A stretch of 64,000 bases of DNA, taken from an uncultured virus (IMG/VR IMGVR_UViG_3300025769_000086). Lineage: Duplodnaviria > Heunggongvirae > Uroviricota > Caudoviricetes. The position numbers and the translations under genes were made by a program. A model generated the notes under the pieces. That model saw only the letters and a list, made by a program, of their open reading frames with translations, was not told where the DNA came from and did no database searches. Location of the stretch: the IMG/VR virus record IMGVR_UViG_3300025769_000086; one strand, written 5' to 3'. Each line of letters begins with the position of its first letter. Within the stretch, counting starts at the first letter, position 1. Shown here one piece after another: positions 11,826-47,511 of the stretch.

Positions 11826-11826
11826 G

Positions 11827-26800: not shown

Positions 26801-28380
26801 CAAACGAGCGTGGAGAGGACGTTAGACGTGCTCCTGTGCGTGGATTTGGTATTAGACCAGCGTGGGATTGTGGTGATGCCTACGAATATGATAGAACTAA
26901 CAACAGAAGTCCGTATGATAGAGTTTGGAACAATGGTAAACCTATCTTTAACATGAAGGGTATAGTTAACCTTAGTACTGGTGCGGTTAGTATTAGTTCA
27001 GGTTACACTATTCCAAGATTTGGCGGTACTGATAATGATGCTAATCTAAACGGTAATGACAATGATTTAGTTGATGTATTTGCACCTACACATGCTATGA
27101 GGATTGGTGATATGGGTAATGGTAGAGGGGTAAGGTATCCTACTCACTTCAATGAAGACATTCTTACAGCACTTTCAGCACCTGTAGAAAAGACTGGTAT
27201 GGTACTAAGTACACATACAGCAGAACCTCTATTCGGTAAAGGGTTGTTACGCCCCCGTAACGCTGTACTGCAAGCCGATGAACTACCTAGAGGAATCAGT
27301 GATACGCTAGATATTTCAGACGATGGATTGCTAAAACCGGAGGCTACAGTAAGTCCAAGGACAGAAAAAATTGTAGGAACATCCGTTCATGTGGATGCAA
27401 TATCAAGAAGTAGCCCTAGAATCGGTGTAGATGGCGATATTTTAAGTGGTGTTGAAACGAATCATATTGTTATTAATACAGAGGCTCACAGTCTACATAC
27501 AGACAGGAATATTGGTCAAAGAATCGTGCTTGAAGGGGCTTTACAGCCCGATATTGGGAATGGTAACACTTTATCCTTAACTGATTTAAATTTAACAACT
27601 ATATCTTTTGCACGTCAAAGTCGTGGTGCTCCTATAAATTCTGCATTAAGATTCACTCATACACAACCATTTAGACCGTATGGTGGCGTTTATATTATGG
27701 AAAGTAAAGTACATGCAGGATTGTTTGATGATACAGGATGGGGTAGAAATAATTTAGCAGGTGTAGAAAAAACTACTAACCCATATCAAAATAGTACTTT
27801 AAAATTAAATACAAAACGTAATAACCAAAATGATAAAAGTGTTAAATTTATGTTAAAAAGTATAAAACTATTAGATAATAAACATATACAATTATTTAGA
27901 TTAAATAATGATTTACATAGTAGTTCTCCACAATATGCATTAAATTATTTATATTCTACAAGTGCTGGAAAATATGGTTTATTTAATTACGAAGTACCTA
28001 CTACAAGTGCAAATACACCTTATGCAACTGGTATAGTACCAAATACTAATGGTCCATATCATCCGGTATTTTTGTTTGATAGTACAGGTTCTAATTTTGA
28101 AATACCCGATTGTTTTGGTCCTAAATTATTAGGTTCTAGTGTAAGTGGTTTTGATAACACTTCTTTAAGTGAAGCGGTAACAAGACTTGTTATTAGTGAA
28201 AATACTTTACAACACCATCGTTCAGATGCTGCTAGAAGGAGGCAAGAATTAGATACTGATGATGCTGTGACTGGTTTAGATTTCACAGTAAAACCTAGAT
28301 TTAGTCAGTCTTTACACCCTAAAGGACATAAAGGAGATGTAACTTTTGGTACAAGTGACCACAGTGGAGATGGTGCTTAA
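11827..28380 (+). CDS. Giant virion protein (~5,517 aa) with N-terminal LamG/concanavalin-A-like domain
   Basis: Single 16.5-kb ORF; ATG 11827 (MPVIS) directly after the upstream stop; AFFFDG..ITIEAWV.P..HVIATFN..VQLYING..F.G.M lectin signature. Confidence 0.8.
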   Translation: MPVISTTNHAFFFDGVTDSIIIPQGNSSTDNTSRGLFNSNPNSGSDNILSLTDEITIEAWVVPDCGGVIVEKENCFSLSLGNVDTPGPAVFNLNLLDTEKNEIETIQLTTAYLTSNGYDGTIFPPSTFTGIHDSYNRFNSSYDDATTLNINHRPLMHVIATFNSKKVQLYINGILMAEQTLYNDKFILLKNNNPIFVGGKGGKFRGIMEAIHLCTSFTNDMVQGEVPTVKDDTLLLFRFEEPIAPIESVYPLNLSASADSTTIYLSTTNAASLATELTGSSQTSGTIDFTISPYSSGNYTITQSTKTATTSHSVPHVPYNLLLNPNGINLDTLKPSQKPPERVRLESINIDTGALTISSIHLDFATNSNGKRGLLHAYSELDKPKFIVLGADLLIDSGTSRPYQPPHFSSQAIDRTGQMVIDESDLENHGFVFSSNMATTVNDTDNPFAALWPTTLDEGYQIGHSGRHIKNHVKGHTFLRMLPRAEREIIDLKGGGQVDLVDVVYDNTREGIKDQIPVNSEVDVYRDAGTYDIKNVINSSTVTAVYNDFQDVTVSDGKEKLIALGGTTFDYRPFMLKGQVPTYGTTPDANTRKHHLRPSKESRVALLHIPLLRSTYNHAPFIEVHYNAIDLTGASMNSYDGSTRVNTAQPLLMVEKTVPASNTAFVNGDTTAYLYDIIVSQISSLGSLTLYSPGGYVEFDSLESDNVFAVNELVGDNSEGYDADDDLDESYTPANFTPYAQGLVGNSPPKIVLESSSQNESHPSIFNKVYFPKIETSKNLTTSSNITRIEPEVNVGSPSDGQFDTGVSGVSSSIHEFFDVIDNIMDVDNPSVADMALIIQPCDRTRTNQLAHIKHALDDSNDVNQMSLLYLLNRAVIRGIKETNDEDGSFTIIECEGIFTPFVSQSIDFKGKGSPDSHIVKEIEPNAPVVTVTLGGPGQGAVDTKPTYDESKLSRLPFSSRRSYSVRADYLNTTSGGSITVSPLNNHSNDMKSWGTYGFPKVGYVYFEDGSKARYQSKSGNTFTFQSGAADIGSGYYVAHDGTEFTFIKRLLRYIGYISNSDSTILQINRTLYSEPDFGDESLIDNGSTVNDRMFQKMNGVNHDYQLGTQFASTRALAEIPFFDNQFFGKHVGPNNSFKIHLDATMTAHSYNPSPVGKRPIDLPPADREVESAYSFGDNNPFTSTVIESLSGNNLVVKDINIFPTPEVAVSYQQITNDTTSRYRKVFLPSGDWAFYSAITENTKTLTLVYPSANFRQNAIAGTPVTVGGPNTNDGAIVLASDSFTPSSEYEDRSNTYYDSASVKTQGGNVDYGMRQYVSAVEFKEGPETNPHAEKIQTKRASAVIGSVNVIGTTATRGSILEITLSDEDMELFPDIGIDNLSDLVTGTGETFYEVQCVHPSSKKLLKFHYYGTLNKYNNFDITVGNSGFTVQGDNTSIILYYYEGFTTAQALAGNNTYPDFSVLAGEKMTLVGKRRRVFYDNFVSTKSSITKNIASNVHEKMGIFNELVANVKIDTNIAITAYSTTNKTVTVNPVDDVGLFDLSGLNVRKGDVLFAYKTSSTEERYATIGTVDSIAVHSDSSVVITLSDSDLKAIANVTDYKLGVGCDDFDDVDAILNKTWVNPYASGGLRNGDTIWGNMSYNNPHATEGLFFKSRGVLNEAQVWTGFNNGEGNLNSNPRDSIPLENFLIGNTCLETARNFAQHVNKTIEENYKSLGLTAAEAPTVAYVDPYLSNEGHARVLLYDVAHDREFIAFQDLHMQVQSELQTTHIGWNRYVVKDTDTTRTDLHSYLASYNGSSPSAWTTQIDVTNGYPSQNRFIRSTQQSKFIESAYAHDLPNKQAYNLTSNYISSTNTTPKYNRYSRLYGKGHGHFVHTEYSLQGASSGYTFSNSLPPQTTSHVSISKIADDYHKLSRRKGNDFISQLIKIRNATTACSFRDPSTFFDTPDGTRVIPAFLSLKGIRSETLSLDNHEESRLQHLPQWKDMGFVRRLSIDAGSIGLKTRNSLEAAEEIVRTINQYAALNARLSDGSSAHDPSPFWDTKQSFSSAQKGTHMGYLRAHIGRAVTDRNGVNGWTVVIHSTVPGASGRNFCVWLDNSQGQTEYQPEFIIGHGGRWRNFWALPEDIQGENMHPAPMPLNKHGRPFAPITTLQQYLEDENEENVIAVTDYGTDEEHTIQSVSDVISGQMHNTSIPKSFESEGSPSTLIQGLRTGKSAIARVNFGGLVATGVPGFTDVAGKWGYGTFSTEDKARYGNNVASSYSSHVSNAEKIKLAKGESKRDLYGFRFEDHLGNNYGVRFIYRERENTRGGRESFVKKTEDLPSTISQEICVFFNDKDVSQGGFTIGKNMSGSGDATGMLDTGDATNPVIETWTGNLWNAVNAPEATVRVNVTENTNESKLKIVGLEPFDASFTTDGKLNYLGFPKNGGLLQISDIDGTGNANVGKVFHYTHQDGSYFYGITPSVADWNITNDPYIISPVLNRTTLVTDELMAAVTAAAINATSPTTFDCTHMYTTDGKTFGEWGVKPDSIVITPFSNDGKYLSESFSASVHPDLGIQAAHLEFGEQKSISIDLNVDDDNLEGVISIATPNHIVTDAKLDLGKKVDCGYIPRTLLQIVTKSKGRHTNTPTPVFVNSTNNPVDTTAWKNNLNGVTFTRSSGDHILPKIDSPQFRFDSNSSWGSQRLDGVTNAELWNFLIPSDSSTASGMKAFGEKKRAYFVDDSAPFLVCSMIVQSQQGADSEKKLIFNTNTGINLPSSAPGNSQILTLFGDERAREFAGLRTLGSVFSEPITFFKGGKSSPDHSVPVFFGGGFTGVTLDVNDGTTNDYSSFYTHPYASGPTGTAGIQNANEISTSFAMLDCNAMFAFFPGTPLCNQHRGSLMPPFFNQDNMLTPDLDRGGTSYTRGVVKAKPIPLVMRFAHPTARYEDHRDGTDNKTTYMIFGPGQAFPFTGVHDSTGTENVNEPFSGRIITSGNTWSRVPRFTGNKQAFPNHITNTDGDYLPEDITYYNANTAYHWKAIVNWETPAGHPRRTMYQRPAHGRHYGQIYTITDGSSTGSQVNGVMPLRHTPAVGFGITMGADTVFHMDGGLHAGGSWLDNQLTFNPVHPKKNTRIVGGNSSTTWTRDNQIHPTAFRVAGPLTGRILDYSGSETVSSSDSKLEYIVVDATRCQNGEELATVLGAAINAFPGAGALKSLGGTHMPSMGNAMRQDRYGWVDTGAIGTYDTTNKFVESATTTNRDLLENLPASGWLKSAIDTVDNANSNTQSACYHAKEILVVDAAAGTFKARFRLAQHKKAAANGAFDVNTSPDGNLFVWSKAGTIRFNNEDDSTRDHMTQVHFSGIVDAVDRTKPIGAVGWAGERYSYLNSLKVGTEGYGAGLGAHHSMLSFAPYGTASTMITTLSQLPHTYPLFDTPESVPPIDGVVADLDNYLDSFYSGGFKIAGASTRSYSLIQTDSATTHHNYSNTPINFNKTNGQTSSSEILPDTLSQPVGLYGSAFLVVSYESESALIAKYDRDGITATGDWLQIHGVSSDAITYAGTTLWDERFHGQDRFIAPANAGPNVEALIVHDMVVPKSTAFESDVTWVDTLFPTGATKHMHGSVSSDLELENATPDRAKTGDLIYDLDYSAGSYNLEPETAGPVESITVSATGSGYSTGFAATTGGNGSGCRVNVVSVSTGALNSVTLASAGTGYEVGDVLTVAGGSGGTVTVGRINNLVERNVASHHHTTSYQANKSATYWMGDVNAYQIYENSAIKNFNTENVVWKRMDGGNLSLPAINARGLGAVPFMTRVASNTAYTTGEKIFGNVRFSFETTNSAMLPILQAQELSHPQLAARYPLKVENVLQIPNEEIQFDSINVLDDSGQVHKIEGGSPFGTIIRGYRLIEDRTTKGTAPSLANSGKPSNLKITLPNPDSIPGNIVVRSGFDPIQAYQNETFGSGGMLHADLGVSAPSSDNKLERFFDNTVKGPRQAPNYENHNWEHIDPLTYKSTLDGWKNESLQTSYELHDKTLFFHVTKMGHSHTHRYPTVYTHTSGIETDTVSVSSWNATTNALVIDATLNTNVFNAGFGTKEVKDSRKFLRVYNPTTDEGVVCSYTSQGSTTLTVVGDVDFATFMAGQTVTDLKVVPSYYVPAGSARFFAARRMRDHAEVSGSSPDMAHTQYTGNETVAYNRYSKPVLTPMPYPRMGHHFVTPTMPMLPGHWSHPAYQSLYKKHRAQQRLQKKFLDSATIQDVYDTEEKKTNTTLVEDFINPLESEINFSGINAAPSGPSDIHGGAFTLMFETAIKYDGYGVLASTGLGGDINKVGGHTVVLEAAAYYTLGYHFPDPAEVGAYQIIIQPNLHVNQIRGYSANTQSVGKGMTYQQVNTVVGIADHSSQTGAISLILEKATDADVRGCEIFINETMLDVSPDYGSQFTNIPPLLLYNPFGVNLNETPSFTRQGFPYSPMFSDATPAYTLNIPWWTILFDNIDYNSSNYITDLDDYSNYIGISQYAPHNYYQFSKSTYGSIGNQLTIQGYPSIYPNIYSRTLQNISLIPQCTVISFSQGDGTITVDDASVLPRTPLFGQKLIYQAENGATYIREYIRRSGDARDEINLPNTIHLNVNNDAFWDNLFAGAVISLTTTGSLNDPYTHLIDKKKNVFAHFLPDLINGSQDTTSLHLPDAFLCKSHPNLGRPYTYFSDDDSRAWNGNAVDAAMYNSLPEHFETFHYFAASYSMSYGPFYMDIKSPNTTKDGSVTYNSDNTDVGDDGGNITYHRLWPCGSRGGPQASSLDEYMIAVLSWHYPGEHGSLDFNISDKGYDSSSSGSYTDSSTKGLRLGWEGGTGARSSTERRSYGYRIALRQALNKPRWGIHSLRYFSEIASGSSASGNAVLTTDYHSGPLVQEFKYGVMNDAPTWIYGGGGSDTSNVGALGQTYVGVMETATNFTGMLGIDKPENLVRYSDGRRMTRPYGAPVRTIRNPAGTRRDWWGDGEGKGIERLSKASEYYLIDWWANERGEDVRRAPVRGFGIRPAWDCGDAYEYDRTNNRSPYDRVWNNGKPIFNMKGIVNLSTGAVSISSGYTIPRFGGTDNDANLNGNDNDLVDVFAPTHAMRIGDMGNGRGVRYPTHFNEDILTALSAPVEKTGMVLSTHTAEPLFGKGLLRPRNAVLQADELPRGISDTLDISDDGLLKPEATVSPRTEKIVGTSVHVDAISRSSPRIGVDGDILSGVETNHIVINTEAHSLHTDRNIGQRIVLEGALQPDIGNGNTLSLTDLNLTTISFARQSRGAPINSALRFTHTQPFRPYGGVYIMESKVHAGLFDDTGWGRNNLAGVEKTTNPYQNSTLKLNTKRNNQNDKSVKFMLKSIKLLDNKHIQLFRLNNDLHSSSPQYALNYLYSTSAGKYGLFNYEVPTTSANTPYATGIVPNTNGPYHPVFLFDSTGSNFEIPDCFGPKLLGSSVSGFDNTSLSEAVTRLVISENTLQHHRSDAARRRQELDTDDAVTGLDFTVKPRFSQSLHPKGHKGDVTFGTSDHSGDGA

Positions 28381-32888: not shown

Positions 32889-34535
32889 ATGACGGAAGTA
32901 GATTTTAAGGTCAAAAAGGGTTTTGTGTCCGAAAATGGGGATTTAACTTTACAGAATGGTAATATCGAATTAGCGAATGGTCATGCTGATATAGATAACA
33001 TCAGGATTGATGGTAATACTATATCAAGTCAAGATACTAATGGTGCTATTGCTCTAATACCTAATGGTGACGGTTTAGTGAAAATTAATACTGGTAATTC
33101 AGAGTTTTATCTTCCAACAAGTGATTCTCCTACTGCTGGACATGTAATTACTTTCCCTAGTAGCGGTAAACAAACAATATGGTCAGCCCCTACTGCTGGT
33201 GGTGTAGCAGCAGATGATATTACAACTGGTGATGCAGCCATAAACATCGTAACAACGTCTGGAAATATTACATTAGACGCTCAAGCGACAGATGCTGATA
33301 TTATCTTTAAAGTGGATGATGGTGATACTCCTGTCACTGCTTTGACATTAGATGGTTCTGATGCTGGTAGAGGTATTTTTGCAGGTAATGTTACTGTAAC
33401 TGGTAATGAAGTTGCATTTGGTAATGGTGCAACTATTGTAAACACTAATGCTAATTTATTAACAATTACTGAAGCAACTACAGCCTTTAGTGCAGATGTC
33501 ACTGTTGGTGGAGATTTGACAGTCACAGGTAATGATATCAAATCATCCGGCGGCACTACTGCGATTACTCTGAGTGGGGCAAACGTTGAACTTGCTGGAA
33601 ATTTGACTGTAACGGGAAAAACAATTACTACTGAAGTGGAAACTGTATCGACATCTAATGGTGTTCTGTTTGAAGGTAGTGCTGCAAACAACAATGAGAT
33701 ATTATTGAAAGCAGGTACAGTTAGTGCAGATAGAACTATTACTTTACCTGATGAAACTGGTACTGTACTAACTACTGCATCTACAGCATCTGCACTTACA
33801 TCTGTAGGTACATTAACTGCTTTAACAGTAGACAATATAAGTATCAATGGTACTACAATCGGACACACTGATGATACTGATTTAATTACACTTGCAAATA
33901 CATCAGTTGCATTTGCCAGCGATGTTGATGTTAATGTTGCTAAAGCAGGTGGTTTACAAATAGGAGGAACTGCGGTTACAGCAACAGCAACAGAACTCAA
34001 TGTTTTGGATAATGTGACGGCTGGAACTGTTACTGCTAGTTTAGCACTAGTTGTTGATAGCAGTAAAGATATTGCTACATTAAATCAACTAGATTCAGCA
34101 ACGCTAAAGGCAGGTGCTGGTGTTGCTGTAGCGACTGGTGGAGACCATATATTAATTGGAGATGATGATAAAACTAGTATTTTTTCCAAAACTTCTGCTG
34201 CTACTAGTTTTAACACTAGTGGAACGATATTTACATTAGCAAGTGGTACAAATAAAGGTGTTAAACTTTTAATTCATTTTAAACAAGTTGCTAGTCCTTA
34301 TCACGTTCATATGGAAGAAATGTTAGTTACATGGGGTGGCTCTGCAAGTAGTAATACAAGTGCAGGGGCTGATGCAGATGTACATGTAGTGCAATACGGT
34401 CTAATTCGTACTGCTACATCAGGTGCAGGTTCTGGTGTAATAACTGTGACTCGTAGTAGTGCTAACATAAATGTAGTCTGGACTGCTGGAACTGCCGAAA
34501 GTTGGGTTTATAAAATACATGCTGTCAAAATATGA
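32889..34535 (+). CDS. Tail fibre protein 2
   Basis: Repeated GDLTVTGN/GNLTVTG, ADRTITLPDETGTV, LTSVGTLTAL fibre motifs. Confidence 0.7.
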   Translation: MTEVDFKVKKGFVSENGDLTLQNGNIELANGHADIDNIRIDGNTISSQDTNGAIALIPNGDGLVKINTGNSEFYLPTSDSPTAGHVITFPSSGKQTIWSAPTAGGVAADDITTGDAAINIVTTSGNITLDAQATDADIIFKVDDGDTPVTALTLDGSDAGRGIFAGNVTVTGNEVAFGNGATIVNTNANLLTITEATTAFSADVTVGGDLTVTGNDIKSSGGTTAITLSGANVELAGNLTVTGKTITTEVETVSTSNGVLFEGSAANNNEILLKAGTVSADRTITLPDETGTVLTTASTASALTSVGTLTALTVDNISINGTTIGHTDDTDLITLANTSVAFASDVDVNVAKAGGLQIGGTAVTATATELNVLDNVTAGTVTASLALVVDSSKDIATLNQLDSATLKAGAGVAVATGGDHILIGDDDKTSIFSKTSAATSFNTSGTIFTLASGTNKGVKLLIHFKQVASPYHVHMEEMLVTWGGSASSNTSAGADADVHVVQYGLIRTATSGAGSGVITVTRSSANINVVWTAGTAESWVYKIHAVKI

Positions 34536-34544
34536 GGTGGAAAA

Positions 34545-37500
34545 ATGGTAACATATACACCTTTTAAGGCATTACACGGTGCAAAAATCGAAGATGATGG
34601 TAATGCTGAAATCAATGTAGAGAGATATAGCGGTGCTAATATCCGTATACAATCACAAGCATCTGCTGGTAGAATTGAGACAACAAATGCACATGAATTA
34701 TGGTTAGGTGCAAATGGTAGCGGTAGAATAGAAATTCAATCCGGTGGATTAGTGAGTATACCCGGTAATTTGACAGTTAGTGGTACATTTAATGCAACAC
34801 TTGCTACTGCTGCTCAAACTAACATAACATCTCTTGGTTCTTTATCATCATTAGATGTTAATGGTGATGCTACTGTATCAGGTAATCTATCATTAGATGG
34901 TTCTAATAAAGAATTAAGATTTTATGAAGGTGCTAACTATGTAGGGTTTGAAGCCCCTGCTTTATCTGCTGACCAAATATGGGTATTACCTGCTTCTGAT
35001 GGTAGTGCAAACCAAGCCTTAACTACGGATGGTAGCGGTAATTTTCAGTGGTCTAGTGCAAGCAGTATTGCAGGAGCAGGTAGCAATTTATCTCTTGCCA
35101 ACGGTACTAACAATCGCATTGTAACTGCGGTAGATGGTAGTAATCTAAACGGTGAAGCAAATTTAACTTTTGATGGTTCTACATTAACCGTTGCAGGTAA
35201 TATGTTAGTTAACAATCATGGCTCATTAAAGGCAAACGGAAGTGGGTCTTTACTGCTTGGAAATACAAATTCTGGTGTTATTAAAGTTCATGGAGATACA
35301 GGTTCATCTATTGTAGAAGGTTATGGTAATCACCTAATTCTACAAACGGTGCGTGATAGTGACGATATAATATTTAGAGTCAATGCAGGTGGAACAGATA
35401 GTGATTCTACTGTTGTTGAAGCGATGAGAATACATGGGCCGGATGCTAATATTGGAATAGGCACTACGAGTCCTTCTACTGAACTTCATCTATCGGGTGC
35501 TTCCCATCCTTCAATAAGAGTTACAGGGACAGATAATGCGGGTGCTGACCCTGCAATCGAGTTATTAGGAACTGCTGATGACTTTACCGAAGGTGGGCAA
35601 CTTTGGTATGATAATGGTACAGGAGTTCTTCATCTTGCATCAATTTACAACAACGATGCCGCAGATATACAATTCCATACAAAGGTAGCCGCAGACAGAA
35701 GCACTTCAAATGTAAGAATGACAATAGCGGGTGATGGTAATGTAGGAATAGGCACTACAAGCCCCGAATACAAATTAGATGTCACAGGCTCTCTTAGAAT
35801 ACTTCCAACTATTTCTTCTCATGCGGGTACTGCTATCAGGATAGGGCCACAGGACAATGATATTGATGTCACTTTGCTGAGAGTCGATGGCAATGGTGGT
35901 GGTGCTGGTACTGGAAACTCCGGTGAATCGGATGATTCTAATTATGGTTTCTCGTTGAAATACATGGGAAGTGGAACGGGAGTAAATAACCGATATGCCC
36001 TTTGGATGGATAACTCAGACGCAACAGCATTAGAGGCCATGACTGTCCTACAAGATGGTAAGGTCGGAATAGGTACTGCAAGTCCCGACTATACATTAGA
36101 CGTAGCGGGTAATATCGGTGTAGACCAGTTCATCTATCATAATGGAGATACAGACACATATCTTAACTTACAAACCGATGATGCGAGAATGGTTGTAGGG
36201 AATGATATTGCTTGGTGGTATGATGAGGGTGCGGCTTCTAAACTACATTTATCGTGGAACGGTGAAGCAGATGTTGAGATAGGAAATGCGGGCGGTACTC
36301 CCGATTTCTTCTTTGGTGGTTCACAAGGTTCTTACAATGGTAAAATGGGAATAGGTACTACAAGTCCTGATTCACAGTTAGATATATCATCTGCTAGTAC
36401 GGCTACATTAAGACTTTCAAATAGTGATACTTCGTTAACAGAAGGACAGATAACAGGTGAAATTATCTTTTATCAAGATGATGATAGTGGTAGTGCAGAT
36501 GGTATAACAGGCCGTATAGGTATGCGTTCATCAAAAAGAAGTGACGGTACTTATTATGGTAATGCAGGAGACATGGGTTTCTTTGTTGCAGGTTCGGGTA
36601 ATTATTCAACTGCTAGTCAAAATGCCGACTTAGAGGCTATGAGTATTAGAGCAGGTGGTAATGTTGGAATAGGCACTACAACTCCTGACTATGAATTAGA
36701 TGTAGCGGGAGACATCGGTATAAACTCATATATTCGTCATAATGGAGATGCAGATACTTACATTAAATTTGACACAGATGGAATTAGATTAGTAGCAGGA
36801 AATGATTTGGCACTTCACTATGAAGAAGATTCTACGTCAAAACTACATCTGTCATATAATGGAGAAGCAGATGTTGAGATAGGAAATGCGGGTGGTACTC
36901 CAAATTTCTTCTTTGGTGGTTCACAAGGTTCGTATGATGCTAAGATGGGGATAGGTACTTCTACTCCTTCTTCTCTACTACATATTCACGGAGACATGGC
37001 TGATGGTAAACAAGGTATTCTGATAACAAGAAATGATACTAGTACTGCCGACACTAATCTTCTTGGGGCGATTGGTTTTGATTCGAGTGACGGCAATATC
37101 CCTAGTAAAGTGACAGAGGCATCTGCGGGTATTGCTGCTTATGCCGCAGAAGACCACAGTACAGGAGATAAAGGTGGAGACTTAGTATTCTTTACTTCGC
37201 CTATTAACCAAAATGATGATACTGACGCTCTTGAGAGAATGCGTATTGATTCAGAAGGGAAGATTGGAATAGGTACTAATGACCCTTGCGACTTAGTACA
37301 TATAGCAGGTTATGGTAGAGTATTTACTGAAACTGCGGGTTATCTTGATGGTAATATTTTCAACAGTTATTCATGGTCGCCAATGTCTGATTTAACTAAC
37401 CCACCTGCCGGATTTACAATTAATGGTGGAACAGATGAAAATAGTATAGTCTATGGTCAAACTCCGTTAGGTTCAGATGATTATTATTATGCTAGAGGAT

Positions 37501-39644
37501 TACTATGGCGTTTTCAAGATAGTGGTAATAATAGTGCAAGTGGTGGATTCTTAACTGCCGCACCATATCCTAAAATTGATATAAATAAAAGTTATAGAAT
37601 GTCTGTATGGATAAAAAGGAGTCATCTTACAGAAGGTGCTTACTACATGGGCATATACGGTATGGATGATACTAATGGAAGTAACGTAGGGTTACAAGAT
37701 GTAAGTAGAAGGGGGACATGTGATGGTGCAATAACGACCACAGGTACTTTTACTGCTGATTTCTCTAGCGGTAGTGCCACTCTTACAAATATTAGCATAA
37801 ATACTAATTTATTAGCAACAGGAATGTCTTTGTTTGATGTAGCAGATGGTACATTCGATGGAATACCCGACAACACTACTATTCAATCAATAGATTCATC
37901 TTCTCAAATAACCATGAGTGCTAATGCTACAGCCACAAGTACAACTAGACCTGTTAATTACGGTAAAACAAGTATTACGTTGGATTCCGGTCATAATTTA
38001 CTTGATGGTAATGGTAGCACGACAAGATATGCAGTGATAAATAACGTAGATAGAATATCTTATACTGATATAGATAACAATGTTTTGACAGGTATTCCAT
38101 TAACCGGAGAGTATGCTATAAGCCAAGCACATGCCGATAATGCTAAAATAATGCAGTTAGAAACTAACGCTTATTTCATGAGTGGTGATTTACCGGAAGT
38201 AGATAAGTGGTATTTAGTAGTAGGTTATGTTCAAGGTCAAGGGGATACAGATTACACAGATAGAGGTGCGGTATATGATGGTGAGACAGGTAATAGGGTA
38301 GGTACTTGCGGTAATTTCCAATGGTGGTCACAATCTACATATGTTAAAAATAGAGTTTATATGTTTTACAGTGATGACAATCCTGAACAAATTCAACATG
38401 CTTTTGGTCCACGTTTTGAAGAAATAAGTGATGCTCCACAGATAAGCACTCTTCTAGGTGGAAAAATAACAACAGGTATGACGATTAAAAATGATGTATC
38501 AACTGCGACTCCTACAAGTGGTTATGTTTCACTCGGAGAGTATGCGGGTGCATTAGAGGTGACTACTGAACACAGTTATCTCCGTTTAGGTGCAACAAAT
38601 GGTAGTTATAACCATATACAGGGAGGAAATGCAAAATTCTATTTCAATAAACCTTTAGTTATAGATGGTGGAAATACATCGGGTAGTGCTTACCAAATTT
38701 CTTCTTACTCTTCTGAAGATTTAGTGTTAGCAACTCAAGATGGTGCAGAAAATAGACTAACAATAAAATCCGACACAGGTAATATAGGAATAGGAACTAC
38801 AAGCCCTTCCGCAAAATTACAAGTTCTTCAAAATAATGCCGCATGGACTATACTTGCGGGTGCTGATTTAAGTAATCCAACTTTAACTGATAATACTAGA
38901 AAATTTATGAGATTAGGTATGCCACATTATGATACTGATGAAGAAAACTTTTCTCTAATAACAGGTGATGCTGATAATGGTCAAAACAAGTTATTTATAG
39001 GTGGTGGAACAAGTGTTGGGAATGCGGCAACTGATATTTTCTTCAATACTGCGGCTAACTCAACTACAACTACCGGAACAACAAGAATGACAATAAAAGG
39101 TAGTGGTAATGTTGGAATAGGCGTTACCGCACCTTCTGCAAAATTAGAGGTTGCAGGTGAAATTAAAACTTCGTTAGGTAACATCAACAGTTGTGTTTCA
39201 TTTGTTTATAACAGAAGTGACATGGATTCCGGTGCAGTAAATCTAAAAGCAGTAGCATTTGATGGTTCTTCATCACAAAATCATTGGGGATATATTATGC
39301 CTAAATCGGGAACAGTAAAATATTTAACATTAAACACTAGAAATCATACAGTAACAAGTACAAATGAACAAACTTGGAAAATAAACAATAACAACAATAA
39401 TTCTAGTTCGGGAGAATTTTTCCAAATTGCAGTAGCAAAAGGTGCAACTCAAGATAATACAGGAGTCAGTGGAGATGCTACAATGGAATTAACACAATCT
39501 CCTCATTCAAGTACAATATGGAGAGGTTCAGTGGTTGTAAACCACACCTTTGATGCAGGAGATGAAATTAGAATACAAAGAACAAATGCCAACAGTGTTG
39601 ACATGGGAGATACTGTTGGTGTTATATACGTGGAGTTTGATTGA
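34545..39644 (+). CDS. Long modular tail fibre / receptor-binding protein (1699 aa)
   Basis: Nine GIG(T/V)xxP junctions delimiting ~94-109-aa modules; followed by a fibre chaperone gene. Confidence 0.8.
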   Translation: MVTYTPFKALHGAKIEDDGNAEINVERYSGANIRIQSQASAGRIETTNAHELWLGANGSGRIEIQSGGLVSIPGNLTVSGTFNATLATAAQTNITSLGSLSSLDVNGDATVSGNLSLDGSNKELRFYEGANYVGFEAPALSADQIWVLPASDGSANQALTTDGSGNFQWSSASSIAGAGSNLSLANGTNNRIVTAVDGSNLNGEANLTFDGSTLTVAGNMLVNNHGSLKANGSGSLLLGNTNSGVIKVHGDTGSSIVEGYGNHLILQTVRDSDDIIFRVNAGGTDSDSTVVEAMRIHGPDANIGIGTTSPSTELHLSGASHPSIRVTGTDNAGADPAIELLGTADDFTEGGQLWYDNGTGVLHLASIYNNDAADIQFHTKVAADRSTSNVRMTIAGDGNVGIGTTSPEYKLDVTGSLRILPTISSHAGTAIRIGPQDNDIDVTLLRVDGNGGGAGTGNSGESDDSNYGFSLKYMGSGTGVNNRYALWMDNSDATALEAMTVLQDGKVGIGTASPDYTLDVAGNIGVDQFIYHNGDTDTYLNLQTDDARMVVGNDIAWWYDEGAASKLHLSWNGEADVEIGNAGGTPDFFFGGSQGSYNGKMGIGTTSPDSQLDISSASTATLRLSNSDTSLTEGQITGEIIFYQDDDSGSADGITGRIGMRSSKRSDGTYYGNAGDMGFFVAGSGNYSTASQNADLEAMSIRAGGNVGIGTTTPDYELDVAGDIGINSYIRHNGDADTYIKFDTDGIRLVAGNDLALHYEEDSTSKLHLSYNGEADVEIGNAGGTPNFFFGGSQGSYDAKMGIGTSTPSSLLHIHGDMADGKQGILITRNDTSTADTNLLGAIGFDSSDGNIPSKVTEASAGIAAYAAEDHSTGDKGGDLVFFTSPINQNDDTDALERMRIDSEGKIGIGTNDPCDLVHIAGYGRVFTETAGYLDGNIFNSYSWSPMSDLTNPPAGFTINGGTDENSIVYGQTPLGSDDYYYARGLLWRFQDSGNNSASGGFLTAAPYPKIDINKSYRMSVWIKRSHLTEGAYYMGIYGMDDTNGSNVGLQDVSRRGTCDGAITTTGTFTADFSSGSATLTNISINTNLLATGMSLFDVADGTFDGIPDNTTIQSIDSSSQITMSANATATSTTRPVNYGKTSITLDSGHNLLDGNGSTTRYAVINNVDRISYTDIDNNVLTGIPLTGEYAISQAHADNAKIMQLETNAYFMSGDLPEVDKWYLVVGYVQGQGDTDYTDRGAVYDGETGNRVGTCGNFQWWSQSTYVKNRVYMFYSDDNPEQIQHAFGPRFEEISDAPQISTLLGGKITTGMTIKNDVSTATPTSGYVSLGEYAGALEVTTEHSYLRLGATNGSYNHIQGGNAKFYFNKPLVIDGGNTSGSAYQISSYSSEDLVLATQDGAENRLTIKSDTGNIGIGTTSPSAKLQVLQNNAAWTILAGADLSNPTLTDNTRKFMRLGMPHYDTDEENFSLITGDADNGQNKLFIGGGTSVGNAATDIFFNTAANSTTTTGTTRMTIKGSGNVGIGVTAPSAKLEVAGEIKTSLGNINSCVSFVYNRSDMDSGAVNLKAVAFDGSSSQNHWGYIMPKSGTVKYLTLNTRNHTVTSTNEQTWKINNNNNNSSSGEFFQIAVAKGATQDNTGVSGDATMELTQSPHSSTIWRGSVVVNHTFDAGDEIRIQRTNANSVDMGDTVGVIYVEFD
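35454..39134 (+). repeat. Nine copies of fibre junction motif GG(A/G)ATAGG..
   Basis: Copies begin at 35454, 35745, 36066, 36348, 36666, 36948, 37266, 38787 and 39114. Confidence 0.9.
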
Positions 39645-39646
39645 TT

Positions 39647-39877
39647 ATGAGTGAAATAACGGCAGAAGAAACGGCTTGGGATATACTAAGAGAAGATAGA
39701 AATGCACTATTACGTGGCATAGATAAATATCAAGGTGTATTATTTTATGAATCACTAACAGATACACAAAAACAAGAACTGATTACATATAGACAGGCAC
39801 TTTTAGATTTACCTGCGGCATATGATAATCCCGAAGATTGTTATGCTAATTTACCAACAAAACCTTCTTGGATTTAA
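39647..39877 (+). CDS. Tail fibre assembly chaperone (Phage_tail_APC-like)
   Basis: WDILREDRNALL...YRQALLDLP...PTKPSW signature directly after fibre gene. Confidence 0.8.
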   Translation: MSEITAEETAWDILREDRNALLRGIDKYQGVLFYESLTDTQKQELITYRQALLDLPAAYDNPEDCYANLPTKPSWI

Positions 39878-39951
39878 TTCTTTTTTCTAAGAGCCAACCA
39901 TACAAAGAACTTATTTGATAAAGTCCAAAACGCTTTATCTATTTTGTTCAT
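39874..39951 (-). CDS. Micropeptide e, 25 aa (MNKIDKAFWTLSNKFFVWLALRKKN)
   Basis: Hand translation; AAGGT upstream; its TAA overlaps the + strand TAA of the chaperone gene. Confidence 0.55.
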   Translation of the reverse strand: MNKIDKAFWTLSNKFFVWLALRKKN

Positions 39952-40003
39952 TAATCATACCTTCCAATATTATTTCCCAATAATCCCAATTAATATCATT
40001 CAC
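39935..40003 (-). CDS. Micropeptide d, 22 aa (MNDINWDYWEIILEGMINEQNR)
   Basis: GTG start with AGGTGG upstream; overlaps both neighbours. Confidence 0.45.
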   Translation of the reverse strand: MNDINWDYWEIILEGMINEQNR

Positions 40004-40148
40004 GATTAATATTCCACCTATAGATTATATTACCAACAATCATGGTCATTGTGGCTATGAAGAATATTAATGAAAAAACCGGAGAATCTAAACTTACTGG
40101 AATATCACTTTCTAAAAATTTCATAGTATTGTCTATGTTAAAGTTCAT
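39996..40148 (-). CDS. Micropeptide c, 50 aa, one predicted transmembrane helix
   Basis: ATGA-coupled; hydrophobic stretch VFSLIFFIATMTMIVGNIIY. Confidence 0.6.
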   Translation of the reverse strand: MNFNIDNTMKFLESDIPVSLDSPVFSLIFFIATMTMIVGNIIYRWNINRE

Positions 40149-40228
40149 TCATCCCAACCTCTAAATGTTTCTTCCATAAATTCTTTTATCCACTTACATG
40201 ACCCGTTGTGATGTTTTCTATCTTTCAT
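40145..40228 (-). CDS. Micropeptide b, 27 aa (MKDRKHHNGSCKWIKEFMEETFRGWDE)
   Basis: ATGA-coupled at both ends; GAGG upstream. Confidence 0.55.
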   Translation of the reverse strand: MKDRKHHNGSCKWIKEFMEETFRGWDE

Positions 40229-40308
40229 TTAAAATCCTCTTCTGTTTTGCCAAACCAATTTAGAAAGGCTTCCCTCATGGGTTTATTAGTTATCCAACCT
40301 TTTGGCAT
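40225..40308 (-). CDS. Micropeptide a, 27 aa (MPKGWITNKPMREAFLNWFGKTEEDFK)
   Basis: First ORF of the coupled chain; ATGA overlap with b. Confidence 0.5.
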   Translation of the reverse strand: MPKGWITNKPMREAFLNWFGKTEEDFK

Positions 40309-40326
40309 GGTGTAAAAATTACACCA
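40308..40326. promoter_or_regulatory. Palindrome TGGTGTAA-AAA-TTACACCA, operator-like
   Basis: Perfect 8-bp arms with 3-nt spacer abutting the ATG of micropeptide a. Confidence 0.45.
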
Positions 40327-40514
40327 ACGGTTCTTCTATATTTCCCTTTCCTGCATCATAAGAAAGAGAGGGGGGAACAGCATCAGAGGAGAAAGAAGTA
40401 CCTCTGTTCTACGGCGGGTAATACACGATAAGATGTATAGAACGATGTTATAAAAGAAAATATGTTGCAAACTGTTTTTAAAATGTAGAAACCCCCGACA
40501 AACGCTAAGAGGTT

Positions 40515-40691
40515 TTATTTTATAATTTTTTTGAACACAGAATCTTCCCAAAGATGACCACATTCTCTACATTTCCAAATGTATACTCTTGTTCTTTTTT
40601 CATCGTGAAATCTTCCAGAAATCCTGATAGGTATGTGTCTGTGGTTACATTTTCTACAAGATACTTTTAATCGCTCAGAAAGTTTTTTCAT
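40515..40691 (-). CDS. TFS/TFIIS C-terminal-like zinc-ribbon microprotein (58 aa)
   Basis: Hand translation: CRKC...RFHDEKRTRVYIWKCRECGHLWED; TAATG-coupled to the thermosome stop. Confidence 0.65.
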   Translation of the reverse strand: MKKLSERLKVSCRKCNHRHIPIRISGRFHDEKRTRVYIWKCRECGHLWEDSVFKKIIK

Positions 40692-42184
40692 TACTCCATG
40701 CCTCTTTTTGCAATAATGTCGTCAATTTTTAATATTGCAGTTGTAACTTCAGTTGCACTAAGAATTGCTTGTCTTACTAAATCACAGGGTTCAACAACAC
40801 CATCTTCCAACATATTTGTAATACCACCCTCTTCTACATTAACACCCATATGATAGTCACCATCTGATATAGCGTGTCTCATATCGAGAATTACATCCAA
40901 TGGGTCGTGTCCTGCATTTTCCGCTATGGTTGCTGGTAGTATTTCTAAAGAATCTGCAAATGCGTTAATAGCCATCTGTGCTCTACCCTCGACAGTATTA
41001 GCCTTCATTCTCAAATGATTAGCCAAAGCCGCATATGTAGACCCTCCACCTGTAACAATTTTCCCTCCATTTAATACCAAAGACACTACACCTAATGCAT
41101 CATCAAAACCACGAGCGACTTCATCAAGAGTAGAACTTGTTGCTCCTCTCAAAATTAATGTTGACTGATTAGATTCAACTTTTCCACTAACGAATAAATA
41201 ATTTATTTCATTAAACGTCTTTCTTTTTATTAGACCTGAAATCACATTCTCTATATCATCAGGAGTCTGTGCTATACGAGAACCTAATGCTAATCCTAAT
41301 GCTTTCATTGATGATTCAGGTACTCTTCTAACAATTGCTATATTTTGTTTTGCTAAGTAAGCAGCAACATCATCGGTAACTCCATCTCTAATGAACACCA
41401 CACCACCATTTGGTAACATATTACCAATTCTTTTTGCTTGTGTGAGTAAATCATCTGTGTCACTTTTCTTAAATGCGTTGTAACCTTTCATATCTACTTG
41501 TACTGTAACATTTTCTTCTCTCTTTACAGGTTCTAAACCAGTGTTAAGTAATATAACATTAGAAAGATTTTCTTCCTGTACTTCATAAACAAAATCTTTG
41601 TTGACTACAACACCGTTGAAGAAATAAGAATCAGATAATGCACCACCAGCCAATCCAACAACTTTTACTTTGTCTGCACTTCCTGCAACATTAACTGCTT
41701 CAACACATAGTTTAGACACTTGGTCTATTGCTGCTTCTAATGTTTTTCCAGTAACTGAGGTTTTTGCTATTTGTAATATTTCTTGTTCATTTGCTTCATA
41801 AGATAGTCGATTATCTAAGAAATCAATAGCCATAGTAGCCGCTTGATTATATCCTTTACATACTAAGTTAGGATGTAATCCTTTTGTGAAAAGATTTTCT
41901 GAATCTGCTAATAATTGACCTGCCAGTATTACAGTAGATGTTGTGCCATCATAACACAATGCTTCTTGTGTTTTAGCAATATCAACCATCATTTTTGCAC
42001 CGGGATGGCTAACATCTAATTCTCTTAGTATTGTTGCACCATCATTAGTGATTATTGTATCACCGCCAGCATCAACCATCATTTTATCTCGACCCATTGG
42101 ACCAAGTGTACTTTTGACAGTATCTACAATCGTTCTTGCTGCTCTTATATTATTTTGTAAGGGGTTCATTCTTTCATCTTTCAT
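40691..42184 (-). CDS. ths: Group II chaperonin (thermosome subunit)
   Basis: STLGPMGRDKM, ITNDGATIL, (Y)DGTTS, TLILRG, GGG, ILKIDD motifs. Confidence 0.95.
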   Translation of the reverse strand: MKDERMNPLQNNIRAARTIVDTVKSTLGPMGRDKMMVDAGGDTIITNDGATILRELDVSHPGAKMMVDIAKTQEALCYDGTTSTVILAGQLLADSENLFTKGLHPNLVCKGYNQAATMAIDFLDNRLSYEANEQEILQIAKTSVTGKTLEAAIDQVSKLCVEAVNVAGSADKVKVVGLAGGALSDSYFFNGVVVNKDFVYEVQEENLSNVILLNTGLEPVKREENVTVQVDMKGYNAFKKSDTDDLLTQAKRIGNMLPNGGVVFIRDGVTDDVAAYLAKQNIAIVRRVPESSMKALGLALGSRIAQTPDDIENVISGLIKRKTFNEINYLFVSGKVESNQSTLILRGATSSTLDEVARGFDDALGVVSLVLNGGKIVTGGGSTYAALANHLRMKANTVEGRAQMAINAFADSLEILPATIAENAGHDPLDVILDMRHAISDGDYHMGVNVEEGGITNMLEDGVVEPCDLVRQAILSATEVTTAILKIDDIIAKRGME

Positions 42185-44269: not shown

Positions 44270-44280
44270 TTTATATACTA
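44270..44280 (-). promoter_or_regulatory. TATA-box-like TAGTATATAAA upstream of helicase
   Basis: At the edge of an AT-rich 86-nt intergenic gap; identical 11-mer upstream of RFC. Confidence 0.45.
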
Positions 44281-44979
44281 ACGCCTTTTTGTTCTTTCAA
44301 TATGAACTGGTTCTTCACTTGTTAGAACATTCATTATTTTCTGTCTTAATGCTGGTCCTAAACCTTTTACATATTTCAACGACTCTTCAAAACACATTTC
44401 TTCAATACTGCCACACTCCGTTAACATTTTCTCTCCTGTTTCTCTTCCAATACCGGGTATAGCCATCAACATGTCTAATCTCACATCGTTTGTACTAACC
44501 CTTCTTATTGCCCTTGCACCATGACTAGATGCAGGTTTGTGTAATTTGTCGTGTAACTTTACAACAAACATAGCCGCTTCCGATTGATTTTCTGTAAAGA
44601 AAACCTGACATTCAAAATCACTCATTATTCTAGCAATAGTGCCTAGCAATTCGTTTTGTACTTTACTATATGTTACTTTGTAACCATTTCTTTTAGACAT
44701 CGCAACATGCTTTGCGATTGAACCGTGAATCAAAAGAAAGAATCTACTGTAGTTAGCATCTAAATTTTCTAATTGTCTCCAAAGGTGGCCGCTATGACTT
44801 GACATGAATAAATCACTAATTGATTTAGCCTCTATACATGCTTCGCCTAGAAGATAATCTCCTACTATCAAAGTTTTACGTACTACTGTCAATCCTTCTT
44901 TTTCTGCTCTCCTGATAATTGATTCGCAGAGAGTACCCCTTTCATTACTATCAATAAATAAATCCGGTTTATTTCGCAC
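44278..44979 (-). CDS. ERCC4/XPF (Hef-like) nuclease with HhH
   Basis: IDSNE, GDY, IEAKSISD (ERKxxxD-like), IPGIG and VKGLG HhH motifs. Confidence 0.85.
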   Translation of the reverse strand: MRNKPDLFIDSNERGTLCESIIRRAEKEGLTVVRKTLIVGDYLLGEACIEAKSISDLFMSSHSGHLWRQLENLDANYSRFFLLIHGSIAKHVAMSKRNGYKVTYSKVQNELLGTIARIMSDFECQVFFTENQSEAAMFVVKLHDKLHKPASSHGARAIRRVSTNDVRLDMLMAIPGIGRETGEKMLTECGSIEEMCFEESLKYVKGLGPALRQKIMNVLTSEEPVHIERTKRR

Positions 44980-46225: not shown

Positions 46226-46549
46226 TCACTTTTGCATTTTTTTATATTTGAGTAAAGCATTTCTTGAACAATAATCCATACCTTCGCTGTGACCATATAA
46301 ATCAAACACAGCACTATTCACTACTATATCTAGTGCCTGAAAGCCGCCATTGACATCATCTTCAGTAAAAGCATCTAATGTTAATTGTTTACCATTAAAC
46401 ACTCTCACTAACGGTCTATCTTTACTACCTTTTTCCATGAATGTTATATTCACTACAGGTTTTTCATTCTCAGAAAAATATTCATCTTTTTCAATATCTC
46501 CCATTATTATCATCTTCAATTCATTTTGTAATTTTGTTTCATTTTTCAT
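46226..46549 (-). CDS. Hypothetical protein
   Basis: ATGA-coupled start at 46549 (MKNETK). Confidence 0.6.
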   Translation of the reverse strand: MKNETKLQNELKMIIMGDIEKDEYFSENEKPVVNITFMEKGSKDRPLVRVFNGKQLTLDAFTEDDVNGGFQALDIVVNSAVFDLYGHSEGMDYCSRNALLKYKKMQK

Positions 46550-47511
46550 ACTTTTATACCCCCGTTCCAAGATGGACACAAATCCATAAAGTCGCACCAA
46601 GAACATAAGTTCTCATGCCTACAATATGATTTACAGGTGTCCTTGTGTATTGGTGGAAATTCATTTTTAACATGTGCTTCAACAAGTTTTTTTATTCTAT
46701 TGTTAACTGTTCTAGGTGCATACTTTGTCTTACTTGTACCTATTTCTTCTATTTCCCATTCTTTCTTTGTACCGTTTCTTACATCACCATCAGGAAATTC
46801 CCATGCCCAATGCGTGACGGGTAGAAACTCTTCCATGTGACCTTCTTCTAATAACATTTTATAAAATTGCATTTCTGTACGCATACTTGTTGCTTTCTTT
46901 GGATTCCATTTACCAGTTTTTAATTCCATAAGTACGAAGCCGCCCTCACTATCTGAAAAGATTCTATCAATGAAACCTTTCAGATGTACTGGGTATTTTT
47001 TACCATTGACTTCAACTTCAATTCTAGCATGACCCTCTACTTCATTACCAACAGGCTTCCAATCTTTACCTTTAGTGACCAGTAATCTATCCCATTGCCA
47101 TCTCAACCAAGTATCAATAATTGCATCTTCACCATACATGTAAGGTGATGGTGGTTTCGGTATCACTGTTTTTAGTTTCTCATAACCAAGAAGATGTTTT
47201 TCTTCTTCTATTAAGTTTAACACTTCAGGTAAGACACTATCCACATTTTTCCAAAAGTATTCACAAACGTCATGCACATTTGTTCCTTTTATCATATGTT
47301 CAGTTTCTTGCCCTCTATGACCTAGTATTTTAGTAAGATAGTATTGATATGGACACCAGTTAAAATCACCAAGACTTGACTTAGTTATTCTAAGGATGCC
47401 ATCATCATTAGGTTTCCAAGCATAACTACTTTCTTCATATGACTTCATCATTTCAGCGTTAGTATAATCAGAACTTTTCGTAAAAGATTCACCATTTGGA
47501 TTAAATTTCAT
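46546..47511 (-). CDS. Cas4-like PD-(D/E)xK exonuclease
   Basis: N-terminal WCP, GTNVH, GFIDRI, MELKTG, QFY, C-terminal CSWCDFMDLC. Confidence 0.85.
   Translation of the reverse strand: MKFNPNGESFTKSSDYTNAEMMKSYEESSYAWKPNDDGILRITKSSLGDFNWCPYQYYLTKILGHRGQETEHMIKGTNVHDVCEYFWKNVDSVLPEVLNLIEEEKHLLGYEKLKTVIPKPPSPYMYGEDAIIDTWLRWQWDRLLVTKGKDWKPVGNEVEGHARIEVEVNGKKYPVHLKGFIDRIFSDSEGGFVLMELKTGKWNPKKATSMRTEMQFYKMLLEEGHMEEFLPVTHWAWEFPDGDVRNGTKKEWEIEEIGTSKTKYAPRTVNNRIKKLVEAHVKNEFPPIHKDTCKSYCRHENLCSWCDFMDLCPSWNGGIKV

Follow-up and report, generated by a model that had tools for sequence, protein, structure and literature searches.

Does the DNA that joins the modules of a viral tail fibre itself guide their exchange? 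The question is raised by an uncultured tailed virus (IMG/VR record IMGVR_UViG_3300025769_000086), of which we analysed a stretch of 64,000 nucleotides (nt), hereafter the window. Its tail-fibre gene carries nine in-frame Gly-Ile-Gly (GIG) junctions at spacings of 291, 321, 282, 318, 282, 318, 1521 and 327 nt. An earlier interpretation made from the letters alone (the sequence-only reading) had placed these sites correctly and had proposed that the junction DNA is a preferred in-frame crossover point for modules of ~100 amino acids (aa). The observation holds, more strongly than it was first put, and the proposal is supported: breakpoints in homologues concentrate at the motif, and its GGA-ATA spelling is explained neither by codon or codon-pair usage nor by recent duplication alone. 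The best reading of these data, and one we consider probable, is that the conserved cores of the fibre junctions are in-frame short-homology crossover joints whose sequence is kept alike by concerted evolution.

The junctions resemble one another at silent as well as coding positions. As the sequence-only reading had reported, the octamer GGAATAGG stands at eight of the nine sites and the codon ATA at all nine. The window holds nine copies of the octamer against 1.31 expected, a number reached by none of 100 shuffled sequences; eight copies are in the fibre, and the ninth, at 6386, lies out of frame in another open reading frame (ORF). Glycine in the window's 40 ORFs is mostly GGT, as had also been noticed (GGT 65%, GGA 22%), and isoleucine is ATA in 46% of cases. 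With the copies taken as independent, the binomial probability of at least eight GGA in nine is 4e-5 and that of nine ATA in nine is 9e-4. Codon-pair bias was rejected as the cause, as Gly-Ile dicodons elsewhere in the window are GGAATA in only 14 of 85 cases. The continuation (C/T)ACTAC(A/G)A, said to follow often, does occur, but a strict match is found in just four of the nine copies.

Relatives of the fibre provide a larger sample and internal controls. The pattern G-[IV]-G-[TVI]-x-x-P occurs 57 times in the window fibre and loci L003, L004 and L006–L011 together, and 46 copies remain after removal of those less than 15% different over 84 nt; L001 and L002 (identical to the window) and L005 (identical to L004) were left out. 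Among these lineage copies the first glycine (Gly0) is GGA in 43 of 46 (background 0.28, P = 2e-20), the isoleucine ATA in 43 of 45 (0.46, P = 1e-12) and the threonine ACT in 41 of 43 (0.45, P = 2e-12), while the second glycine is divided among GGC (20), GGT (19) and GGA (7), GGC having a background of 0.06. From this threonine outwards the excess weakens, through the next threonine (ACA 20/27, background 0.42), serine (AGT 24/30, 0.37) and proline (CCT 36/46, 0.51), and it is at background by Leu+10 (TTA 26/45, 0.56), His+11 (CAT 21/28, 0.72) and Val+12 (GTT 14/25, 0.38). Since these control residues share the same copies and the same history, silent sites ten codons off the core have been randomised. 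The result holds when the copies are collapsed to nine flank clusters: GGA 8/9, ATA 8/8 and ACT 7/7, with the controls CCT (6/9) and TTA (3/9) at background. This pattern speaks against codon bias, and also against recent duplication as the sole cause.

The conserved core measures 24–30 nt and reads approximately GGT AAY GTN GGA ATA GGY ACT ACA AGT CCT. We define the junction core as the 30 nt that begin with the Gly codon three codons ahead of GIG and end with the Pro codon; over this length copies are 75–76% identical, against 35–49% in the flanks. Of the 21 pairs that the variable wobble positions of the core form, none shows linkage at P<0.05, which fits frequent exchange within the core, at low statistical power.

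Breakpoints in relatives fall on the same DNA. We compared the fibre gene by blastn with L003, L004, L006, L007 and L009 (first 40 matches listed per locus) and counted blocks that were 150 nt or longer and 80% or more identical. Among the matches listed there were ten such blocks (80–93%) with 17 informative ends. Measured from a core start, 14 of these ends fall between −27 and +48 nt; positions in this range make up 13% of the gene (P = 3e-10). With each distinct end site counted once, the figure is 11 of 14 (P = 6e-8). Every one of the nine cores was used at least once. At block edges ungapped identity falls from 87–100% to 20–40% within one or two 15-nt windows. The edges agree with those of the conserved DNA, at −9 or −10 nt on the left and +7 to +35 nt on the right. 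Some blocks comprise a single module with a core at both ends, namely 36339–36688 (93%, L007), 36039–36368 (90%, L006) and 38778–39121 (87.5%, L007; 82%, L006).

Protein comparisons give the same picture. Segment by motif-bounded segment, identity between the window fibre (P0001) and its homologue P0002 runs from 99% through 12, 7, 7, 12 and 19% to 97 and 94%, down to 28 and 15%, and back to 91%. P0005 is without aa 799–904, which is module 6, exactly from motif to motif. Over six pairwise comparisons 15 of 18 identity steps lie at −5 to +20 aa of a motif (P = 7e-11), and six of eight distinct step sites do so (P = 1.5e-4). Among 120 proteins retrieved, seven (982–2532 aa) have module 1 alone in common with the window fibre, at 74–91% identity and each at a different position; a further one has only module 6 in common with it, and another only the C-terminal domain.

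Between the cores, the shaft modules (94–107 residues each) have little in common. The claim that they are mostly unrelated is borne out at BLAST level: with the motif removed, one of 36 pairs of module bodies is clearly alike (modules 3 and 5, 65% aa identity, E = 1.5e-34), and modules 4 and 6 are marginal (E = 0.001). At the nucleotide level modules 3 and 5 are 71–80% identical, and their paralogy, 36030–36375 on the +600 diagonal, spans one module plus its two flanking motifs. Tandem Repeats Finder, for which the modules have diverged too far, reported no array over 34000–40000. The nine cores are all direct repeats. A suspected richness of the fibre in GCG and GGG codons is weakly true (11.8 and 8.2 per 1000 codons, against 1.9–9.1 and 0–6.9 in the other seven long ORFs of the window), and GC content at third codon positions is 0.21 against 0.16–0.26 in the same seven.

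What is the motif structurally? Each module is bounded by G-N/K-V/I-G-I-G-T-T-S-P-x-x-x-L-x-V. HMMER aligned fibre aa 1403–1611, centred on the motif, with solved mosaic adhesive trimer (MAT) fibres (8OND 2.9e-10, 8OML 2.5e-9, 8ON4 3.4e-5, 8OJN 2.9e-3). For these proteins the part of Caulton et al. 2024 (PMC10769870) drawn on here describes a consensus V-G-G/N-pi-X-X-P-X-X-X-L as the "capping loop" that edges intertwined trimeric beta-helix domains, common to the MAT proteins of Bdellovibrio bacteriovorus and to S74-type phage fibres. A capping-loop motif repeated along the shaft, as in S74-type and MAT fibres, is what the window fibre shows, in nine copies. When chain numbers are converted to residue numbers through the 662–1031 construct (370 residues), the limits G683 and E813 given in that source correspond to the Gly three residues before the G-x-G of one copy and to the end of the next copy. 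It is at the codon for this Gly, too, that the window's shared blocks start on their left side (−9 nt). The S74 peptidase/intramolecular chaperone domain (PF13884) is absent from P0001 in a Pfam scan at E<=1 and present in some distant homologues, and the window fibre would belong to the non-S74 subgroup that PMC10769870, in the part used, describes. An AlphaFold2 monomer model of modules 2–3 was too low in confidence to inform (mean pLDDT 35.3, pTM 0.21). The fibre shaft is probably a chain of modules of the trimeric beta-helix type, as in S74-type and MAT fibres.

How might exchange proceed? The core is the only stretch common to all modules and always lies in the same codon phase, and for this reason each core could serve as a short-homology crossover point. 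By recombination or template switching from core to core, whole modules would be swapped, inserted or deleted in frame, with co-infecting relatives or copies within one gene as partners, and such crossovers would fall on a structural boundary at which the fibre accepts change. Exchange and conversion running repeatedly through the core would then produce a uniform spelling in the exchanging gene pool, that is, concerted evolution; the spelling would stay uniform because modules with matching flanking cores are those that spread, and silent sites a few codons off the core would drift freely. What the sequences show is the conservation at silent sites, its decay with distance, spellings particular to each lineage, and mosaic blocks with their edges at the cores; the recombination mechanism with its enzymes, and a change of host recognition through module turnover, are inferred. 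Two nucleases encoded in the window, one ERCC4-type and one of the PD-(D/E)XK class, are candidate recombination or repair enzymes. The annealing ATPase named in the sequence-only reading was not identified among the window ORFs scanned; the PD-(D/E)XK nuclease is present.

Elsewhere the motif is mostly spelled otherwise. A codon-blind search with the peptide pattern [GA]N[VI]GIGTT, based on a four-module alignment, returned 79 further viral loci with 373 motif copies, only 18 of them spelled GGAATAGG and seven of these 18 from L089, a contig of the window's own lineage. This rules out GGAATAGG as a universal signal, for other lineages keep other spellings. We compared within-gene codon uniformity with simulation in the 19 unrelated viral loci that have at least seven non-redundant copies, L089 excluded. 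At P<0.05, nine loci are uniform at Gly0, 12 at Ile, 10 at Thr and five at the second Gly; one is at Pro+6 and none at Leu+10. The spellings themselves differ by locus: GGT ATT..ACT, GGT ATA..ACA, GGC ATT..ACG or GGA ATT..ACA. Such a combination, uniform within a gene pool and different from one pool to the next, bears the mark of concerted evolution rather than that of a fixed recognition site or translational optimum.

The window lineage's own spelling is widespread. Its exact 20-nt form occurs in at least 140 stretches of viral contigs, where the 81 unique copies examined fall into 69 upstream and 74 downstream sequence clusters, and in 76 stretches of cellular genome contigs (L236–L311), all open in frame and with motif-like flanks. 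The cellular contigs include Bacteroidota, DPANN archaea, Patescibacteria and a metagenome-assembled genome of Pseudobdellovibrionaceae. Module sharing between 78 distant loci and the window lineage came to only two weak matches (74–78% over ~110 nt). We raise, tentatively and as a possibility rather than an expectation, that core spelling may act as a compatibility code: each fibre-gene pool, such as the magrovirus-like viruses with GGA ATA GGY ACT, would keep its own spelling through concerted evolution, and modules would move freely only among genomes that share it. If so, spelling would define and police the communities within which host-recognition modules are exchanged, in archaeal and bacterial viruses as well as in fibre genes of cells, and the core would be a self-maintaining recombination linker rather than a passive by-product.

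Several observations weigh against crossover at the cores as the whole account. Three of the 17 block ends (37115, 34852, 35176) lie off any GIG core, and other junctions must therefore exist. One of them is the end of a 93% block shared with L006 (aa 103–211), which stops at a conserved element, NLTFDGS-x-L-x-V/L-x-G (35146–35200, aa ~201–218); this element is a second kind of junction. The left edge of the L006 block, 34852, stands just past a full motif in L006, where the window keeps a degenerate remnant, SLSSLDVNGD. Exact homology is also short: the longest exact run through the core has a median of 8 nt in 36 window pairs and 10 nt in 1035 lineage pairs, and only 19–37% of core pairs reach a 12-nt run. 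On such runs classical homologous recombination would work inefficiently, which obliges one to assume a pathway that uses microhomology or tolerates mismatches; no recombinase was identified among the window ORFs scanned. The mid-core wobble of the second glycine (C 20, T 19, A 7 of 46) is not homogenised. Since motif copies are kin by descent, the binomial P values overstate their independence, and it is the internal control positions that carry the argument. The relatives compared are all metagenomic contigs. Finally, because the motif is a domain boundary, surviving junctions would lie there even if nothing but selection for working fibres were at play; such selection for intact domain boundaries has its share in the pattern and is not fully separable from DNA homology.

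Could such selection do all the work? Illegitimate breaks would then fall anywhere, the survivors would be those joined at the capping loop, and silent-site conservation would come from an unrelated cause, such as a demand on translation speed or on the mRNA in folding the loop. The motif's place as a structural boundary in solved fibres suits this account, as do the median exact core homology of only 8–10 nt and the three of 17 block ends, one at the NLTFDGS junction, that sit off the core. We nevertheless think it unlikely. Non-preferred codons (GGA 0.28, GGC 0.06 in the background) are fixed only in the core and return to background within ten codons, block edges coincide with the edges of conserved DNA instead of scattering about the boundary, and a translational cause predicts one spelling at like composition, whereas loci of 34–42% GC use GGT ATA, GGT ATT, GGC ATT or GGA ATT. 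Common descent, in which recent tandem duplication has left motif silent sites not yet diverged, can point to modules 3 and 5 as real paralogues (65% aa, 71–80% nt) and to the enrichment of the rare GGC, which resembles an inherited spelling. Yet only one of 36 module-body pairs is clearly alike, the Leu, His and Val codons 10–12 codons off the core are at background in the same copies, and the spelling persists in fibres 25–50% identical, from a virus whose capsid protein is 63% identical. Recent duplication alone is disfavoured by the internal control codons and the unalignable module bodies, and we judge it highly improbable.

A sequence-specific enzyme, whether a virus nuclease or a host hot-spot reader, might instead cut the core and so stimulate exchange. 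The near-invariance of GGAATAGG and ACT around one free base does look like a recognition site, the window encodes PD-(D/E)XK and ERCC4-type nucleases, and nucleases within the magrovirus structural module are reported in the portion of PMC5434244 used here. The prospect is a slim one all the same: no homing endonuclease, integrase, invertase or reverse transcriptase appears among the ORFs scanned, other lineages hold other spellings just as uniform, and the octamer is not enriched elsewhere in the window, where a single out-of-frame copy lies. The mosaic could also be an artefact of metagenome assemblers joining strains at a repeated motif, a concern that metagenomic relatives and a gene with repeats naturally raise. 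Exact core repeats are mostly shorter than 21 nt, which is below the usual assembly word. The common blocks are 80–93% rather than 100% identical and are thus diverged copies, not reads of one strain wrongly joined; L001 and L002 both show the window's architecture unchanged, and L005, from another record, shows that of L004. We give an artefact next to no credence.

Mosaic genes of tailed viruses pose a standing question, homologous recombination at conserved linkers versus random joining followed by selection. This fibre gene offers a clean natural test of the two views: a 24–30 nt linker is fixed at silent positions, equally conserved residues ten codons away drift, and at least nine junctions are each demonstrably used. 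Known generators of fibre diversity work otherwise. Diversity-generating retroelements and Min/Cin-type invertases diversify the receptor-binding end of the fibre, the former needing a reverse transcriptase and a template repeat, the latter inverted crossover sites. Neither reverse transcriptase nor invertase families were found among the 40 ORFs of at least 100 aa searched against PHROGs and/or Pfam, and in contrast to the inverted sites or reverse transcriptase of those switches the window's cores are all direct repeats.

Motif-guided fibre recombination is a kind already known, from T-even phages. According to the part of Trojet et al. 2011 (PMC3157838) drawn on here, which cites Tetart et al. 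1998, crossovers in small glycine-rich motifs (GRMs) of gp38 give recombinants with changed host range. In T-even fibre adhesins (gp38 GRMs, gp37 His boxes) as here, short conserved motifs separate variable specificity segments, and we found both the motif-flanked variable segments and the mosaic boundaries at motifs in the window fibre. The proteins are unrelated, however: no homology to gp37 or gp38 was found in the PHROG, Pfam and phage-database searches of the fibre, and the T-even host is E. coli, here probably an archaeon. GRMs are internal to one small adhesin domain; in the window fibre the units exchanged, deleted or inserted are whole shaft modules of ~100 residues. Silent-site conservation with internal controls, shown here, is not described in the part of PMC3157838 used.

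Two other systems invite comparison. Bdellovibrio MAT/S74-type fibres bear the same capping-loop motif, and MAT proteins are described as chimeric with diverse tips; they belong to a cellular predator, however, the window fibre is without the S74 chaperone domain, and the part of PMC10769870 used gives no DNA-level account of shuffling or gene transfer. GRINS of polyketide synthase genes (Nivina et al. 2021, PMC8256042, as covered here) are likewise DNA elements within the coding sequence of a modular gene and are tied to gene conversion and faster diversification, but they are defined by strong nucleotide skew and sit in genes and organisms unrelated to the window's. Literature searches on motif strings and on silent-site conservation at fibre junctions found nothing relevant. 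New here are the capping-loop beta-helix family, the archaeal host domain, the exchange of whole shaft modules rather than loops, the silent-site conservation with internal controls, and the lineage-specific spellings across many viruses. Motif-guided fibre shuffling is extended from T-even phages to viruses of abundant, uncultured marine group II archaea and tied to an element whose structure has been solved, the capping loop found in trimeric beta-helix fibres, and the same motif is uniform, differently spelled, in many unrelated viral lineages. In practice, cores mark places where fibres tolerate module replacement, an aid in reading host-range evolution from metagenomes.

The fibre's parts and the breakpoints found at each core are collected in the table. 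The only PHROG matches of the ORF are 9942, 18345, 28668 and 5906, and a Pfam scan of the whole protein gave no family at E<=1. Its best phage-database matches are cyanophage and marine phage fibres (24–41%); a DNA-level search of the phage collection with the fibre gene, near and distant, gave no matches, and the two other viral contigs L001 and L002 carry copies identical to the window's. Sequence searches of the PDB with the N-terminal, central and C-terminal regions found no useful relative. The central region, possibly lectin-like, has Atlas leads to DUF2793 and CBM_4_9 at 0.86–0.89, under the 0.9 line, and its aa 1204–1319 have a 34.7% tblastn match to a Vibrio phage tail protein.

Features of the tail-fibre gene and of selected replication-arm genes, with family matches, block ends and identity changes (positions in the window)
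Feature	Position	Strand	Evidence
Tail-fibre ORF, 1699 aa (P0001)	34545–39644	+	PHROG 9942 'tail fiber protein' 5e-31; PHROG 18345 1e-20
N-terminal region, aa 1–300, conserved virion-proximal part	34545–35444	+	Protein identity 99% to P0002, 93% to P0003, 80% to P0005, following segments dropping to 7–35%; nucleotide identity 92.6–92.7% with L003 and L004, reaching as far as motif 1 or 2
Junction core 1	35445–35474	+	GGAATAGG at 35454; L004 block stops at 35467 (identity 100% up to there, 27% over the following 15 nt); P0002 and P0003 fall at aa 311
Junction core 2	35736–35765	+	GGAATAGG at 35745; L003 block stops at 35780; in 7 proteins a single-module block stops at aa 411–419
Junction core 3	36057–36086	+	GGAATAGG at 36066; L006 90.4% block begins at 36039; internal module 3/5 paralogy begins at 36030
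Junction core 4	36339–36368	+	GGAATAGG at 36348; L007 93.4% block begins at 36339; L006 block ends at 36368
Junction core 5	36657–36686	+	GGAATAGG at 36666; L007 block ends at 36688; P0005 rises at aa 699
Junction core 6, sole variant spelling	36939–36968	+	GGGATAGG at 36948; L004 92.3% block begins at 36938; P0002, P0003 and L004 rise at aa 799–800; P0005 deletion begins at aa 799
Junction core 7	37257–37286	+	GGAATAGG at 37266; L007 80% block stops at 37285; last residue of the P0005 deletion is aa 904
Long non-repeat central region, ~aa 915–1411	37287–38777	+	1521-nt spacing from core 7 to core 8
Junction core 8	38778–38807	+	GGAATAGG at 38787; L007 (87.5%) and L006 (82.3%) single-module blocks begin at 38778; P0002, P0003, P0005 and P0006 fall at aa 1418–1426
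Junction core 9	39105–39134	+	GGAATAGG at 39114; L004, L006 and L007 blocks all end at 39121; region aligns with Bdellovibrio fibre 8OND, E 2.9e-10
C-terminal domain, aa 1537–1699, separately exchanged distal unit	39153–39644	+	89–91% identical to P0002, P0003 and P0007, the module before it 8–28% in P0002 and P0003; 63% identical to L008, L009 and L011, from aa 1524
Cpn60/GroEL-type chaperonin, start of replication arm	40691–42184	-	PF00118, 8e-125
ERCC4-type nuclease with helix-hairpin-helix region	44278–44805	-	7e-8
PD-(D/E)XK nuclease	46546–47511	-	9e-22

Which virus, and which host, does the fibre serve? By ORF list and family scans, the 64-kb window consists of a plus-strand structural arm followed by a converging minus-strand replication arm. 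The former holds a capsid gene (1013–2191), a tail-tube-like gene, a 5539-aa ORF and baseplate-like genes, with the fibre ORF last. In the latter we found PolB (PF00136, 2e-30), an RFC-like clamp loader and a primase PHROG match (1e-12), besides the chaperonin; MCM and a RadA-like ATPase were not recognised among the ORFs scanned, the window being only part of the genome. The capsid protein had nine tblastn matches, eight of them records of HCTV-5, HVTV-1/HVTV-2 and HCTV-1/HCTV-16 (32–34% over 99% of the protein) and the ninth a Methanofastidiosa-associated virus (26%). The part of PMC5434244 drawn on here describes magroviruses as having archaeal-type PolB, clamp loader, primase, MCM and RadA-like ATPase with a chaperonin in the replication arm, Cpn60-type in some groups, nucleases within the structural module, a capsid akin to that of haloarchaeal tailed viruses, and an association with Poseidoniales. 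In its capsid, related to those of haloarchaeal tailed viruses, and in those replication-arm genes that were recognised, the window agrees with that description; by its appearance this is a magrovirus-like tailed virus, with marine group II archaea as likely hosts.

One 106-kb contig, from a record that bears the title of a Candidatus Poseidoniales single-cell assembly, has a capsid gene with 63% identity to that of the window (E = 6e-157). Its fibre ORF, of at least 3513 aa, is only 25–50% identical to the window fibre and has nine motif copies, seven spelled GGAATAGG and all nine with ACT (L313 = G002:C2:60001-79000; also L255, L256 and L312). Because this related virus lies on a Poseidoniales single-cell contig, the host of the window virus is likely a marine group II archaeon, by an association that is no proof of infection.

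Other parts of the window have features of their own. The 5539-aa ORF (11761–28380, plus strand) lies between a tape-measure-like ORF (9937–10578) and the baseplate and fibre genes; its family matches are limited to one function-unknown PHROG and, close to the N-terminus, a LamG-like domain (PF13385, 5.7e-7), and it has no in-frame copy of the junction spelling. An ORF with a DNA-binding SAP domain (8795–9343, plus strand; PF02037, 1.9e-10) sits inside the structural arm. On the minus strand, the ORF at 62571–63080 matches pyrimidine dimer DNA glycosylase (PF03013, 1.3e-6; PHROG 624, 7e-55), a UV-repair-type gene in a surface-ocean virus. The ~1-kb gap at 39645–40690 holds no ORF of at least 80 aa and no tRNA, and the sign of GC skew flips within 38000–41000, where the structural and replication arms meet.

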